A DNA stretch of 64,000 bases from a bacterium (GTDB lineage: Bacteria > UBA8248). The notes below the pieces were generated by a model. It was given only the letters and a program-made list of their open reading frames with translations, made no database searches and was not told where the DNA came from. The stretch lies in the NCBI GenBank assembly GCA_963692865.2, contig OY843592.1, positions 1,088,001 to 1,152,000 on the forward strand, read 5' to 3'. Positions 445 to 31,824 of the stretch are shown here, piece after piece (positions within the stretch are counted from its first letter, which is position 1; each line of letters opens with the position of its first letter). The position numbers and the translations under genes are program-made.

Positions 445-1749
445 ATGGCGCTGGTGCTGGAGAAAATCGTGACGGGCCGGTTCGACAACCCGGACGCGCT
501 TCATATCGCGGGCTATGAGGCCACGGGCGGCTACGAGGCGATCCGGGGGCTCCTGGGCGGCGTCGAACCCGCGGACGTCATCGAGATGGTGAAGGCTTCC
601 GGCCTGCGCGGGCGCGGCGGCGCGGGGTTCCCCTGCGGCCTCAAGTGGAGCTTCGTGCCCCAGGTGGACGGGCCGAAATACCTGGCCGTCAACGCCGACG
701 AGGGAGAGCCCGGCACGTTCAAGGACCGCGAACTCATGCTGCGCGACCCGCACCAGCTCATCGAGGGCATCCTCATCGCGTGTTACGCCGTGGGAATCGA
801 GAAGGCCTACATCTACATTCGCGGCGAGTTCGTCGCCCCCTGGCGCGCGGTCGAGAAGGCCCTGGCCGAGGCCTACGAGAAGGGCTACGTCGGCCGGAAC
901 ATCATGGGCAGCGGTTTTTCGTGCGACATCTACACCCACCGGGGCGCGGGCGCCTACATCTGCGGCGAGGAGACGGGCCTTCTGGAGTCGCTCGAGGGCA
1001 AGCGCGGTCACCCGCGCTTGAAGCCGCCGTTTCCGGCGGTGGTGGGCCTCTACGCGCGGCCCACGGTCATCAACAACGTGGAGACGCTCGCGAATCTGCC
1101 CCACATCGTGAACAAGGGGGCGGAATGGTTCGCCGGCATCGGGATCGACGAGAAAAACTCAGGCACCCGCATGTACTGCGTCTCGGGCCACGTGGCGAAG
1201 CCGGGCCTCTACGAGTTGCCGCTCGGCCTGACGTGCGAGGAGATGATTCACGAGCACTGCGGCGGGATGAGAAACGGCGCGGCTCTCAAGGCGGTGATTC
1301 CCGGCGGCGCGAGCGCGCCCGCCCTCACGGCGAAGGAAGTGTATGAGGACAAGGTGAAGATGGATTTCGACTCCCTCGCGAAGGCCGGCAGCATGGGCGG
1401 AAGCGGCGGCGTCATCGTCATGGACGAGACCACTTGCATGGTGCAGGCGGCGGGCAGGCTCGCCGCCTTTTTCGAGCACGAATCCTGCGGGCAGTGCTCC
1501 GTCTGCCGGGAGGGGACCGGCTGGGTGTCCGAGATTCTGGCGCGCATGGAGCGGGGCGAGGGTAAACCCGACGATCTCGATACGCTCGCGTCGATAGACC
1601 CCAACATGCGCGGCAACACCATCTGCGTGCTCTCGGACGCGTGCGCCATGATGTTCGGCGCGTTTTTGACGAAATTTCACGATGAGTTTGAAGCGCACAT
1701 CTCTCTGGGCCGCTGTCCGCTGGGCAGCCCGTATCCCGCCGCGATGTGA
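445..1749 (+). CDS. nuoF: NADH-quinone oxidoreductase subunit F
   Basis: GLRGRGGAGFP, NADEGEPGTFKDR, GAGAYICGEETGL and ESCGQCSVCREG motifs; ATG at 445 follows the nuoE stop, with GAGGAG upstream. Confidence 0.97.
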   Translation: MALVLEKIVTGRFDNPDALHIAGYEATGGYEAIRGLLGGVEPADVIEMVKASGLRGRGGAGFPCGLKWSFVPQVDGPKYLAVNADEGEPGTFKDRELMLRDPHQLIEGILIACYAVGIEKAYIYIRGEFVAPWRAVEKALAEAYEKGYVGRNIMGSGFSCDIYTHRGAGAYICGEETGLLESLEGKRGHPRLKPPFPAVVGLYARPTVINNVETLANLPHIVNKGAEWFAGIGIDEKNSGTRMYCVSGHVAKPGLYELPLGLTCEEMIHEHCGGMRNGAALKAVIPGGASAPALTAKEVYEDKVKMDFDSLAKAGSMGGSGGVIVMDETTCMVQAAGRLAAFFEHESCGQCSVCREGTGWVSEILARMERGEGKPDDLDTLASIDPNMRGNTICVLSDACAMMFGAFLTKFHDEFEAHISLGRCPLGSPYPAAM

Positions 1750-1766
1750 TGGGGGAGAGGCGATAG

Positions 1767-4364
1767 ATGTCGAATGAGCAGGTAACCTTCGTATTCAACG
1801 ACCAGAGCATCACGATGGACAAGGGTCTGCCCGTGCTGGAGGCCGCGCTGCGCATCGGCGCGCACGTTCCGCACTTCTGCTATCACAAGAACCTCTCCAT
1901 CGTGGGCCAGTGCCGGGCCTGCCTCGTCGAGGTGCTCGACGCCGGCAACGGCCGGCCGATACCCAAGCTCCAGCCTTCGTGCGCCACGCCGCCGGCGGAG
2001 GGCATGGTGATCAGCTCGGTGACCCCGCGCGTCATCGAGGCGCAGGAAGGGGTGTTCGAGTTTCTGCTCAAGAACCATCCGCTCGATTGTCCGGTCTGCG
2101 ATCAGGGCGGCGAGTGCCCCCTGCAGGATCAGACCATGGCCTACGGCAAGGCGATCAGCAGGACGCACGAGTTCCGGCGCATCTATCCGCGCAAGGAGAT
2201 CAGCCCCTTCATCAAGCCCGAGATGAACCGCTGCGTGCACTGCACGCGGTGCATCCGCTTCACCGAGGAGATCGACGGAGGGGCGGAGTTCGGCTGGGCG
2301 CAGCGCGGCGACCGCACCGAGGTGGGCGTTTATGAGGACCTGCCCTTGACGAGCGTCGTCTCGGGCAACGTCATCGACATCTGCCCCGTCGGCGCGCTCA
2401 CGGACAACAAATACCGCTTCACCGCGCGCGTGTGGGAGATGGAGGAGACCCAGGGCCCCTGCACGCTTTGCAGCGTGGGCTGCCGCCAGGGCGTCTGGAC
2501 GAAGGACGGCGAGATCAAGCGCGTCACGGCGGGGGAGAACGAAAGAGTCAACGACACCTGGATTTGCGACGTGGCGCGCTACGGCTGGAGCGGGGCGCAC
2601 GGCGAGGGGCGCATCACCCAGCCGATGATCAGAAAAGACGGCGAGCTGACGCCCGTCGGCTGGGCGGAAGCGGTCGGCGAGGCGGCGAGGGGTTTGGGCG
2701 CAATCGTCGAGGAATCCGGCGGCGGCGCAATCGCCGGTCTGGGCGGGGCGTCCTCCACGAACGAGACGGCTTACCAGTTCGGCGCCTTCATGCGTTCGAC
2801 TCTGGGAACCAACCACGTGGACAGCCGGATCCATCCGCGCGACATCGTGCAGACCGACTTGCAGCGCGCCGCCCTGGGCGGCGTGGGCGGCGCGGGCTCC
2901 ATCGAGGAGTTGGGCCGCTCCAGGGCCATCGTCATCGTGGGCAGCGACCCGTTCACGCAACACCCCATACTCGCGCTACAGATCAGAAAGGCGCACGGGG
3001 CGGGCGCGGTGGTCGTGAACGTGAACCAGAGGCGGATCGACTTGCGCGTTCAGGGCAGGACGCACCACCTGGTTCCCGTGCTGGGGGGCATCTCGCGCAC
3101 CCTGCGCGCGCTGGCCACCTGCCTCGTGGACGGCGGCGTGAAGCCCGAAGGAGCGGACGCGGCGGAGTACGCGGCGCTCATAGATTCCGTGGAACTGACG
3201 CGCCTGTGCGAAGAGGCGGACGTGGCGCCCGAGGCCGTCATGGACGCCGCCCGGGCGATTCTGGGGGCCGAGGGCCCCGTGAGCGTCGTCTCGGGCCCGG
3301 GAGAGACCGGGAAGGTCGCCGTAACGGAGGCGATCAATCTGGGACTCCTGCTGCGCGCCAACATGCTCTTCGCGGCAGGCGCGCCGAACTTACAAGGCGC
3401 AATCGACATGGGCCTGCACCCCGATACGCTGCCCGGCGGCGATTTGTCGGACGAGGCCGCGCGCGCCGCCTGCGGGGAGGCGTGGGGAAGGCCGCCCGGC
3501 GCGCAGGCGGGCAGGGACGCGGAAGGCATACTCGACGGTCTCACGAGCGGTGAAGTGAAGGGCCTCTATATTCTGGGCTGCGATCCCGTAGCCGAGCATC
3601 CCGACGGCGCGCGGGCGCGCGAGGCGCTGGAGAAGGCCGGGTTCGTCGTCGCGCAGACTTCTCACCTGAACGCCAGTACGGAATACGCGGACGTCGTGAT
3701 TCCCGCGCCCACGCTGTATGAGCAGGCGGGCAGCGTCACGAACCTGGAGCGCCGGGCGCAGTCCCTCCCGCGCGCGCTCAAGCCGATGATCGACAAGATG
3801 GTCCCCGAAGCCTGGCGCGCCTTCGCCGATATCGCCAAGGCGATGGAGCGTCCCATGCGGGCGAACGCGCTGGACAAGATTCAAATTCAGGCGCGCTCGC
3901 TGGTCGGCGATTACGCGGACGCCTTCGGAAGGATATCCGATGAGGGTCTGCACTTAAGACGGGAGGGAGAGAGAACCTTCCAGATCGCTCAGATTCCCGA
4001 AAAAGAGGCGCAGGAACCGGGCCTCAGGATGCTGCTCACGCCCGTATTGTGGCTCTCGGGGGCGTATATGGCCTCGGCCCATCATCTGGCCGACATGCCC
4101 GAGGCCGCGCTCGCCCTCTCGCCGAGCGATGCGGAGAGCCTGGGCGTCGCGGACGGCGATTCCGTGGAATTCGAGGTGGCGGGCGTTGTCGTTCGGCTAC
4201 CCGCGCACGTGGACAAGAACGCGCCCGTGGGCGTCGCCTTCGCGCCCGAGGGCTGTTTGCGCGCGCATGGGGGGTCGCTCCTGAACACCGGCGGCGCGCC
4301 GGGCCGCCAGGGCGTGGAGATTCAGGTCCGCAAGGCGGAGCAACCCCAGGAGGTGGGCGCCTAG
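1767..4364 (+). CDS. nuoG: NADH-quinone oxidoreductase subunit G
   Basis: CYH..GQCRAC (N1b), HPLDCPVCDQGGEC (N5), CVHCTRC..C (N4) and CTLCSVGC..C (N7) motifs. Confidence 0.96.
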   Translation: MSNEQVTFVFNDQSITMDKGLPVLEAALRIGAHVPHFCYHKNLSIVGQCRACLVEVLDAGNGRPIPKLQPSCATPPAEGMVISSVTPRVIEAQEGVFEFLLKNHPLDCPVCDQGGECPLQDQTMAYGKAISRTHEFRRIYPRKEISPFIKPEMNRCVHCTRCIRFTEEIDGGAEFGWAQRGDRTEVGVYEDLPLTSVVSGNVIDICPVGALTDNKYRFTARVWEMEETQGPCTLCSVGCRQGVWTKDGEIKRVTAGENERVNDTWICDVARYGWSGAHGEGRITQPMIRKDGELTPVGWAEAVGEAARGLGAIVEESGGGAIAGLGGASSTNETAYQFGAFMRSTLGTNHVDSRIHPRDIVQTDLQRAALGGVGGAGSIEELGRSRAIVIVGSDPFTQHPILALQIRKAHGAGAVVVNVNQRRIDLRVQGRTHHLVPVLGGISRTLRALATCLVDGGVKPEGADAAEYAALIDSVELTRLCEEADVAPEAVMDAARAILGAEGPVSVVSGPGETGKVAVTEAINLGLLLRANMLFAAGAPNLQGAIDMGLHPDTLPGGDLSDEAARAACGEAWGRPPGAQAGRDAEGILDGLTSGEVKGLYILGCDPVAEHPDGARAREALEKAGFVVAQTSHLNASTEYADVVIPAPTLYEQAGSVTNLERRAQSLPRALKPMIDKMVPEAWRAFADIAKAMERPMRANALDKIQIQARSLVGDYADAFGRISDEGLHLRREGERTFQIAQIPEKEAQEPGLRMLLTPVLWLSGAYMASAHHLADMPEAALALSPSDAESLGVADGDSVEFEVAGVVVRLPAHVDKNAPVGVAFAPEGCLRAHGGSLLNTGGAPGRQGVEIQVRKAEQPQEVGA

Positions 4365-29142: not shown

Positions 29143-30156
29143 TCACAACACCCTTGAAACTTCATCGGAATCAAAGCGCCTGAGCGGAGAGGTTTCGCCG
29201 CCGCGCCGCATCATCACTCCCAATTCAGGCGCGCATAACTTGCCGATGCGAACGCCCATTGCACCCGTTGCAATGAGCGCTTCCCGAACGGTTTCCTCTC
29301 CTTCGGCTGGAACCGCCACCAAAAGCGCGCCCGACGTGATGACGCCCAGAGGGTCCAGACCCAAGGCTTCGCAAATCCTCCCTCCTTCCAGGGAGATGGG
29401 AATGCTGGCTTCTTCCACGATTGCCCCCAAACCCGCCGCTTCGGCCATTTCATGGACGCCCGTGGCGAGGCCGCCCTCGGTCGGGTCGTGCATGGCGCGC
29501 ACGCAGCCCGTTGCGGCCGCCGCCAGGGCTTGCGCCACCACGCTGATGCCGGGAGATTCGAGATACTTTTTCGCATTCTCGAGTATCTCGACATCCATGA
29601 CGTTTTTGAGAGAATCGTATTTCGCATCCGCAAGAATAGCCGTTCCCTCGACGGGTATGGGGCGCGTAAGCAAAATAAAATCATTCACTTGCGCGCCCGC
29701 GCCGCGTATCAGATTCTCCTTCGACACTTCTCCCAGCATGTGGCCCGAGAGGATCGGAAAATCCAGGCCCGCCGTAATCTCCGTATGTCCGCCGCACAAG
29801 GTGACGCCCAAATCGGCGCAGGCATCTTCCACCTCTTTCCAGATACGGCTTGCCATCGCCTCATCGGCGCGTCCTTCCGGCAGAAGCAGGGTCATCAGGA
29901 ACCACAGCGGGGCAGCGCCCATACAGGCGACGTCGTTCGCGTTCACGTGTACGGCGTAGCGTCCGATATGATGCTCCACGAACGTGACGGGGTCCGATTT
30001 CGCGACGAGGTAACGATCTCCCATGTCGATGACGGCCGCGTCTTCCCCCACCTGCGGACCCACGACGAGGCGCGGGTGAGAAGCCGCGTTCTTGAGCAGA
30101 GCGCCCAGCACGTCCGGCGGAAGCTTGCCCACGGGAAATGGAGACCTGTTGACCAT
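29143..30156 (-). CDS. AIR synthase (PurM/HypE/ThiL/SelD superfamily) related protein
   Basis: GKLP, GEDAAV, KSDP, VNANDVACMGA, GGHTE, HDPTEGGL and SGALL motifs; start at MVNRS inferred. Confidence 0.85.
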   Translation of the reverse strand: MVNRSPFPVGKLPPDVLGALLKNAASHPRLVVGPQVGEDAAVIDMGDRYLVAKSDPVTFVEHHIGRYAVHVNANDVACMGAAPLWFLMTLLLPEGRADEAMASRIWKEVEDACADLGVTLCGGHTEITAGLDFPILSGHMLGEVSKENLIRGAGAQVNDFILLTRPIPVEGTAILADAKYDSLKNVMDVEILENAKKYLESPGISVVAQALAAAATGCVRAMHDPTEGGLATGVHEMAEAAGLGAIVEEASIPISLEGGRICEALGLDPLGVITSGALLVAVPAEGEETVREALIATGAMGVRIGKLCAPELGVMMRRGGETSPLRRFDSDEVSRVL

Positions 30157-30252: not shown

Positions 30253-30349
30253 CCCGTCTTCCCGGTAAAGGCATGGAAACGCTCGCCTTTCCGGGAACAT
30301 GAGCCGATACGGAACAACCCCTGGTTGCCTGTCGATTGCTCCACATACT

Positions 30350-30425
<76 letters not shown>

Positions 30426-30443
30426 GAAATCCTCTCGTTCGCG

Positions 30444-31007
30444 TCAATCTGAATCCGTGACTCCCTCCAGTTCGATGCCTTTTCCGTTCAGTTCGACGGT
30501 GCTCGTGAGCGGAACCGCCGCCTGTACCATCTGCTCGGCGTAACAGCCCTGTTTCGCCAACCGGATGATGTTCAGGATTTTCTCTTCCGAATCGCTCGAT
30601 TCCACCTTGAAATGCGTCCGCACCCTCCGGCACCCCGAGTTCACGTCGCCCCTGAGGACGGAACCTTTCAGGAAGTAATCGAATTCCACGCGGCAGGCGG
30701 CCTTCTCGAAGGTCGTTTTCGTCATCTGGGCGTACCGCCCGAGCTGGGTCAGGAGTCAGAAGCCGACCCCCATGGCGATGTACGTGAGAGGCTGCGGGTA
30801 CCTGTCTTCCCCTCCGATGCGGGGAGGCTCGTCGCTGAACACCTCGAAATGCCGGAATCGCCCGATCTTGAGCTGGCCGTCGTCCATCGTTTCCGTCTCT
30901 GCGAGCATGGTGATCTCGTAACCGTCTTTCGGAAGTTCGGGCTTGTCGATCGGCCGCTCGCCGGGCGCGGTGCTCTCATGCCAGGGATAATTGATGCTCT
31001 CCACCAT
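30444..31007 (-). CDS. OsmC/Ohr-like protein with in-frame UGA (probable selenocysteine), 187 aa
   Basis: ORFs 30756-31007 and 30444-30725 are in one frame joined by a single TGA: DEPPRIGGEDRYPQPLTYIAMGVGF-U-LLTQL...AKQGCYAE. Confidence 0.85.
30726..30755 (-). promoter_or_regulatory. Bacterial SECIS-like hairpin
   Basis: After the UGA: CUCCUGACCCAG-CU-C-GGGCG-GUA-CGCCC-AG; a G-first apical loop 20 nt downstream of the UGA. Confidence 0.65.
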
Positions 31008-31074
31008 GTTCGTCAGTCCTCCAGGGTTTGGGTGCGAATGATTTTATTCCCATAAGTGATTGTTTATATGGATA

Positions 31075-31746
31075 TTATTCCCATTTCAACACAAGCAAAT
31101 AGCCTTCTTGCGGAATCCGGACGAGCGGTTCCAGACGCTCCTCTTTCTTGTGCATCTGGATGGTTTTGAGGTGCGCGTACGCCTCCCAGAGCATGTGGCG
31201 GAACGTGTATTCGAGGTTGAAATGGAACAGCTCCGTATCCTCGGGGTCGATCCACACGCCGGTGCGGTGGGCCTTGAGGGTCACGTTCTCGCGCCACCTG
31301 CGCACGTCCTCGCCGGTTCCGGGCCGCATCATGCCGCGCGGCGCGCGCTCCGTGATATGCCTTCCGTCCCGGATGGACTCGGTCGTCTCCGCTCCCAGCG
31401 CCTCCCAGGCGAGGGCGAACGAATCCCGCATGGCGCCGATAAGGTCTTGAATTTGCGGGTAATACGCCTCTTTCATCATCCGCCCGTCGAAGCGTTCGAG
31501 CAACGCCTCATCGCGCGGGAGCGCGTCGCCGAAGAGGATGGCCCCCCAGCGAACGAGCAGCCACCGGTAGGGCAGGGACGCCACGTGGCTCACCTGGTCG
31601 CGGATCGACCACAGGCCCCAGCTCTTCTCCTCCCTCGTTCTGCGCAGCGCCTCCTCGGAGAGGCCGTCGGTCTCTATCCCATATAAATCAGCGACTTGCG
31701 GGATTTCCGGGAAAAGCGCGCGCGCCGCGTTTCCTCGCATTTGCAC
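31075..31746 (-). CDS. DinB/YfiT-like protein
   Basis: WSIRDQVSH and RHMLWEAYAHL His pattern; GGAGG 10 nt before GTG 31746 (alternative ATG at 31740). Confidence 0.6.
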   Translation of the reverse strand: MQMRGNAARALFPEIPQVADLYGIETDGLSEEALRRTREEKSWGLWSIRDQVSHVASLPYRWLLVRWGAILFGDALPRDEALLERFDGRMMKEAYYPQIQDLIGAMRDSFALAWEALGAETTESIRDGRHITERAPRGMMRPGTGEDVRRWRENVTLKAHRTGVWIDPEDTELFHFNLEYTFRHMLWEAYAHLKTIQMHKKEERLEPLVRIPQEGYLLVLKWE

Positions 31747-31824
31747 GTTCCGGGCTCCTCCGCTCCGGTGTATATTTCGCCTCGTTCCCGGCCTGAACCG
31801 GGCCTTCAAAACCTTCAGAAAAAC

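Follow-up and report, generated by a model that had tools for sequence, protein, structure and literature searches.

The window, a stretch of 64,000 nucleotides of a bacterial genome, carries on its minus strand (31007..30444) a frame that opens with an ATG at 31007, runs through 83 sense codons to a TGA at 30758..30756, continues for a further 103 sense codons, and closes with a second TGA at 30446..30444. Counting the internal TGA, the frame comprises 187 codons, and codon 84 is the single in-frame TGA within it. By sequence reading, a GGAGG ribosome-binding site (31018..31022) lies 10 nt before the ATG. Gene calling with translation table 11 yields two ORFs of 83 aa (30756..31007) and 93 aa (30444..30725). 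The initial annotation had described the locus as a hidden selenoprotein gene, interrupted by the TGA at 30756-30758 alone and split by standard calling; the re-read frame and the table 11 ORFs bear out both points. The apparent internal stop almost certainly codes for selenocysteine, which leaves 31007..30444 as one intact gene. In the encoded protein, the putative selenocysteine at position 84 forms the motif GF-U-LLT (UxxT), Cys105 (codon 30693..30695) lies in A-x-C-R-V-E-F-D, and Cys155 (codon 30543..30545) lies in AKQGC at the second, resolving Cys position of OsmC/Ohr proteins. As a separate observation, the terminal stop (30444-30446, minus strand), 309 nt past the internal TGA, is a TGA as well. 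The gene hence offers a clean internal contrast between one UGA with a downstream hairpin and one without.

A gene of about 235-244 aa (31075..31809, minus strand) lies 67 nt upstream and has no match in Pfam or NCBIfam. Its nearest clusters in language-model feature space belong to the DinB superfamily (score 0.95), with DinB_2 found on 35% of the members; we take the DinB-like character of this gene as a lead only. The two genes may be co-transcribed. On the other side, a convergent tRNA-Phe (30350-30425, plus strand) is located between the OsmC gene and an AIR-synthase-like gene (29143..30156, minus strand; Pfam AIRS and AIRS_C), which within the genus keeps its place beside the tRNA-Phe. 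The AIR-synthase-like gene is a member of the PurM/HypE/SelD/ThiL superfamily and remains below the cut-off of each specific model (hypE 110 bits; selD 91.9 bits, cut-off 125; thiL 85 bits). We considered it as a selenium-linked partner but draw no functional link: its selD score is below the cut-off, and the convergent tRNA-Phe on the other strand separates the two genes. The order of the ~240-aa gene, the OsmC selenoprotein gene, the convergent tRNA-Phe, and the AIR-synthase-like gene is conserved in 16 of 31 related loci, namely those of the same genus.

Read through codon 84, the protein matches the NCBIfam model NF041052 (OsmC_like_Se, "OsmC-related (seleno)protein") with 160.8 bits (E 1.9e-47) over profile positions 12-144 of 144, compared to a curated cut-off of 95 bits; in the six-frame search of the genome the same gene scores 152.6 bits. 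Further, Pfam PF02566 (OsmC) is found at residues 66-168 with 46.8 bits (gathering threshold 27.5; E 4.1e-12), and the match extends across the TGA. The gene is a member of the OsmC-like selenoprotein family represented by NF041052, in line with the proposed OsmC-like identity.

An AlphaFold2 model built from 13 sequences (mean pLDDT 73, pTM 0.67) places residue 84 in a long central helix (predicted at 73-95) and Cys155 between two predicted helices (141-154 and 156-164). Among the Foldseek matches listed against the PDB, all are OsmC/Ohr entries (best E 7.6e-08), with modest TM-scores for the model. OsmC of E. coli (1qwi/1nye) and Ohr of Xylella, Pseudomonas, and Chromobacterium share the fold with a Foldseek probability of 1.00, while the structural alignments contain only 11-20% identical residues. 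These thiol-dependent hydroperoxide reductases have the same two-residue layout, the first Cys sitting in the central helix and the second close to the C-terminus, but in the window protein the predicted peroxidatic residue is Sec. Ohr additionally employs a catalytic Arg/Glu and a lipoyl-protein reductant.

The solved structure closest to the family profile is 3cje (E 3.3e-18), a structural genomics entry for the OsmC-like hydroperoxide resistance protein Jann_2040 from Jannaschia sp. CCS1. The DE..GG...P.P motif is present there too, as are the three Cys columns (GC-VMTQ, ECRV, and AKKGCF), and both Cys105 and Cys155 have their counterparts in it. In contrast to the window protein, 3cje has Cys in place of Sec and is without the conserved N-terminal stretch PGERPIDKPELP. 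To our knowledge, the activity of 3cje has not been characterised.

The residue-84 column is Cys in 3cje, 2opl, and 9wo1. Of 15 homologues in the protein database, 13 cover this column, and 11 of these 13 have Cys. The two exceptions, Leu in P0003 and Trp in P0015, are probably translation artefacts. Moreover, Cys155 and Cys105 are invariant in both homologue alignments made. The placement of the UGA at the catalytic-Cys column and of the second Cys in AKQGC, as initially suggested, is reflected in homologues and structures alike.

The UGA might instead be a true stop, with translation restarting at Met95 so that an N-terminal and a C-terminal half-OsmC polypeptide assemble. An ATG, that of Met95, follows the TGA at a distance of 10 codons, and two database proteins, P0006 and P0016, start from the equivalent Met. 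These two entries, however, are miscalled halves. The Pfam OsmC domain at 66-168 crosses the TGA, codons 85-94 (LLTQLGRYAH), which lie between the TGA and Met95, are conserved as protein and form the centre of the predicted helix 73-95, and the Cys homologues are single chains. An assembly of two halves would also be devoid of the catalytic residue. We therefore consider a split protein exceedingly improbable and favor a single read-through chain.

Conservation of the TGA was assessed in orthologues fetched from 20 of the 22 other genomes of the same genus, which together with the window gene make 21 sequences. All 20 fetched orthologues begin with MVES or MVEN and are colinear, and TGA occupies codon 84 in 21/21. 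Over 210 pairs, codons 1-83 upstream of the TGA have a mean dN of 0.021 and a mean dS of 0.786 (ratio 0.027), and codons 85-184 downstream have a mean dN of 0.056 and a mean dS of 0.724 (ratio 0.078). With a dN/dS of 0.078, the codons past the TGA are thus subject to strong purifying selection, read in the frame of those before it.

Further, 41 related genomes were searched in six frames, and 31 of them gave NF041052 matches over the cut-off. Of these over-cut-off matches, the 100 listed all contain exactly one TGA, while weaker matches to ordinary OsmC proteins in the same search are mostly without TGA. A scan of species-representative genomes, in which the relatives of the window genome are labelled as Nitrospinota or Tectomicrobia MAGs, gave 36 loci. 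In loci L071-L101, 32 gene copies have TGA at the residue-84 column. Two actinobacterial MAG loci supply Cys counterparts at this column: a Solirubrobacteraceae MAG (L103) has TGC and no hairpin at the corresponding place, and a Mycobacterium-labelled MAG (L102) has Cys. In the partial matches L104-L106 the motif at the column was sought and none matched.

Contigs from four sequencing runs were compared over the site; as contigs, they say nothing on expression levels, on the ends of transcripts, or on rare variants. The X1 contig is identical over 30387-31100, TGA included, although X1 may be the source sample itself, in which case it is not independent. A DNA contig from another study (X5) shows 52 differences over 30387-31092. 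A metatranscriptome contig of a relative (X22; 677 nt, 30370-31043) has 74 differences at ~89% identity, and a contig from an RNA run (X21) covers only 30895-31028. Among the 40 differences listed, none falls on 30756-30758, and 63 further differences exist. The X22 contig is only a weak hint at transcription, as the library may hold DNA. Independent assemblies of other species likewise retain the TGA.

A pseudogene created by a nonsense mutation, or a TGA introduced by a sequencing or assembly error, would leave just such a frame, broken under table 11 into an 83-aa and a 93-aa ORF. Both are hardly conceivable for a TGA that stays at the same codon in 21/21 orthologues at a dS of ~0.75, is followed by codons with a dN/dS of 0.078, and recurs exactly once in each of the over-cut-off matches listed from the 41 genomes. 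The identity of the X1 contig across the site argues further against an error. The data instead agree with an intact gene.

Downstream of the TGA, a SECIS-type hairpin spans 30727..30741 (minus strand). Its stem GGGCG/CGCCC pairs 30740..30736 with 30732..30728 and encloses the loop GUA (30735..30733). The hairpin starts 15 nt after the TGA and its loop 20 nt after it; re-reading the positions (15 nt plus 5) returned the initially reported GGGCG-GUA-CGCCC with the loop at this distance. A flanking sixth pair between 30741 and 30727 is C-A, hence unpaired, in the window and U-A in most orthologues; this outermost pair is absent in 8 of 31 distinct sequences. With five to six pairs and a GUA loop 20 nt after the UGA, the hairpin presumably fits the published limits of the bacterial SECIS consensus. 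The SECIS of E. coli fdhF, the model bacterial element for Sec insertion, is likewise an in-CDS hairpin just 3′ of its UGA and presents a G/U-containing apical loop to SelB. Compared to fdhF, the window hairpin is much shorter (5-6 pairs, 3-nt loop GUA). It would be bound by the organism's own SelB.

The significance of the hairpin comes from cross-sequence comparison and not from folding of a single sequence: against shuffles, the 71-nt stretch folds with z = -0.08, and on a single sequence the hairpin is not above chance. The minimum-free-energy structure also contains a stem of 8 pairs in which the UGA takes part; this stem was dismissed as chance, as its codons vary freely among orthologues. 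An Rfam scan of 30300-31100 at E <= 1 returned only the tRNA-Phe and a chance match on the strand opposite to it, and no SECIS family.

Codon use across the 21 orthologues is strikingly uniform in the hairpin. Gly90 is GGG, Arg91 CGG, and Tyr92 TAC in 21/21 each, and Ala93 is GCC in 19 and GCT in 2, with GCT forming a G-U pair. For codons 90-93 the minor-codon fraction is 0.024, compared to 0.222 for 115 further degenerate codons whose amino acid is invariant; a value this low is reached in only 5 of 116 runs of four codons. Covariation was evaluated on 35 sequences (31 distinct) that include the paralogue types. In the six-pair structure 95.2% of cells are paired; shifting the 3′ partner by 1-3 columns lowers this to 16-65%. 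Neither the GUA loop nor any of the three inner pairs varies across the 35 sequences, and compensatory double changes occur in each of the three outer pairs, hence in three of six: GC to CG (12 sequences), GC to UA (3), and UA to CG (3). In 500 shuffles, neither the observed covariation score nor the observed paired fraction was reached, a count that is not a probability since the sequences are related. The conservation signal is partly confounded by the conserved peptide L-G/A/S-R-Y-A-H/S-M. The replacements seen within this peptide, Gly to Ala to Ser and His to Ser, are, however, precisely the ones that leave the hairpin pairs intact.

The genome (4.15 Mb, 8 contigs) is 97% complete by marker genes, with a contamination estimate of 6.7%, and encodes the SelABCD set that the initial annotation had anticipated. 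selA (567.2 bits) and the adjoining selB (391.7 bits), selD (334.6 bits), and tRNA-Sec (selC; 76.7 bits) all score over their curated cut-offs, and ARAGORN confirms the tca anticodon of the latter. The selD gene (C1:65915-66877, L011) contains one in-frame TGA, and SelD is probably itself a selenoprotein here. As an aside, two tRNA-Sec genes with equal scores are present, one on the main contig (C1:1207504-1207596) and one on a small contig (C4:29719-29811); the pair may be a real duplication or a duplicate of assembly or binning.

With regard to the genetic code, TGA closes 1062 of 1983 stop-to-stop frames of at least 400 codons and is the commonest stop. Since TGA is thus the usual stop of this genome, a code in which TGA is a sense codon is excluded. 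ARAGORN finds 50 tRNAs in the whole genome, and the tca anticodon occurs only in the two tRNA-SeC copies.

These data bear on decoding of UGA-84 as an amino acid other than Sec, either by near-cognate read-through (Trp, Cys, or Arg) or under a variant code. An ENA-derived homologue, P0015, does have W at the column. The tRNA-Trp of the genome, however, carries cca, the sole UGA-reading tRNAs are tRNA-SeC, and TGA serves as the stop of more than half of the long frames counted above. Plain read-through would need neither a covarying hairpin at SECIS distance nor the selABD/selC set, and the homologous column is Cys, the usual partner of Sec. We accordingly regard non-Sec decoding as very unlikely.

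Taken together, the TGA in 21/21 orthologues, the Cys pairing, the covarying hairpin, and the Sec machinery uphold the original selenoprotein reading. We estimate a probability of roughly 93% that 31007..30444 is an intact gene for a 187-residue OsmC-related selenoprotein, in which UGA-84 is decoded via a SECIS and the product is a redox enzyme of the OsmC/Ohr fold. Judged from sequence, selenium would be inserted at UGA-84; fold and family suggest a peroxidase chemistry as well as its resolving residue and reductant.

In the proposed mechanism, the hairpin located 15 nt past UGA-84 would serve as a bacterial SECIS once the ribosome reaches this codon. Loaded with Sec-tRNA(Sec), SelB would bind this hairpin, leading to insertion of selenocysteine in place of termination, with the decoding machinery supplied by the selD, selA, selB, and tRNA-Sec genes of the genome. 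The second TGA, which has no such hairpin, would terminate translation. Sec84, as part of U-L-L-T in the long central helix, would then replace the peroxidatic cysteine and most likely reduce hydroperoxides through a selenenic acid. Cys155, or possibly Cys105, would resolve this selenenic acid to a selenenylsulfide, which a thiol donor would re-reduce. We know of no NF041052 member with a measured activity.

The window gene is one of three NF041052 copies with a Sec codon in its genome. The two paralogues, at C1:1713067-1713498 (L025) and C1:268102-268527 (L026), likewise have TGA at the Sec84 column. L025 is followed by a compensated stem GCGCG/CGCGC and L026 by a stem CGCG/CGCG, which by inspection extends past a bulged U.

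A fourth OsmC-fold gene (C1:3876798-3877187; L031, about 1435-1929, plus strand) belongs to a different subfamily, scoring 49.2 bits with NF041052 and E 1.8e-13 with Pfam OsmC. Its first catalytic column holds an in-frame TGA (HAG-U-GLYT), its second Cys (ANCPIH) is typical, and a hairpin of 7 pairs stands above a 5-pair lower stem, with a GGG loop that starts 17 nt after the UGA. This gene is probably another selenoprotein. In one relative (L089), two NF041052 selenoprotein genes stand in tandem at about 1137 and 1750, with their TGAs 613 nt apart. The public gene call P0006, labelled as a Nitrospinaceae hypothetical protein, starts at the Met that follows the first UGA and ends with the GVGF just ahead of the Sec column of a second copy, whose UGA would come right after. 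Such a tandem pair is thus miscalled as one chimeric protein.

The OsmC-related selenoprotein has expanded in this lineage to three Sec paralogues per genome, with tandem copies in one relative, and all copies keep Cys105 and the N-terminal PGER-IDKPELP stretch; within the genus, the window copy follows the conserved DinB-like gene. One might speculate that the OsmC selenoproteins, rather than being plain peroxidases, act as selenium-dependent redox partners of a DinB-type thiol transferase in a detoxification pathway based on low-molecular-weight thiols and specific to these sponge-associated bacteria, an idea we consider very unlikely.

The class itself is not new, as the initial annotation had already stated. 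The accessible portion of the 2005 Sargasso Sea metagenome study by Zhang, Fomenko and Gladyshev (PMC1088965) describes an OsmC-like selenoprotein family (COG1765) with a UxxT motif, and the portions available of two reviews (PMC9312934 and PMC13188914) include OsmC-like selenoproteins, the latter giving PF02566 as their OsmC domain. As far as these portions extend, the window gene shares with this family the UxxT motif and Sec at the first catalytic position. It also shares the OsmC domain PF02566, the HMM family NF041052, a small SECIS hairpin that immediately follows the UGA and carries a G in its apical loop, and the existence of Cys homologues. No substantive difference from the family is apparent; the window copy comes from an uncultured lineage and is one of three paralogues.

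The window gene is thus an ordinary member of a family catalogued since 2005, for which NCBI maintains a dedicated model, and it raises no new question on Sec decoding or OsmC chemistry. Its main value lies in annotation, the gene being intact even though table 11 calling halves it. Loci L089 and L097 of the species-representative scan come from a record named FO_M_Nitrospinota_01; the available part of the BSepDB report (PMC13326102) credits this relative with 54 selenoprotein genes and places it in the top ten of bacteria. Correct calling of the window gene enlarges the selenoproteome by one entry, or by four OsmC-fold entries when the paralogues are counted, in a lineage that, according to the same part of that report, already ranks among the richest in selenoprotein genes.
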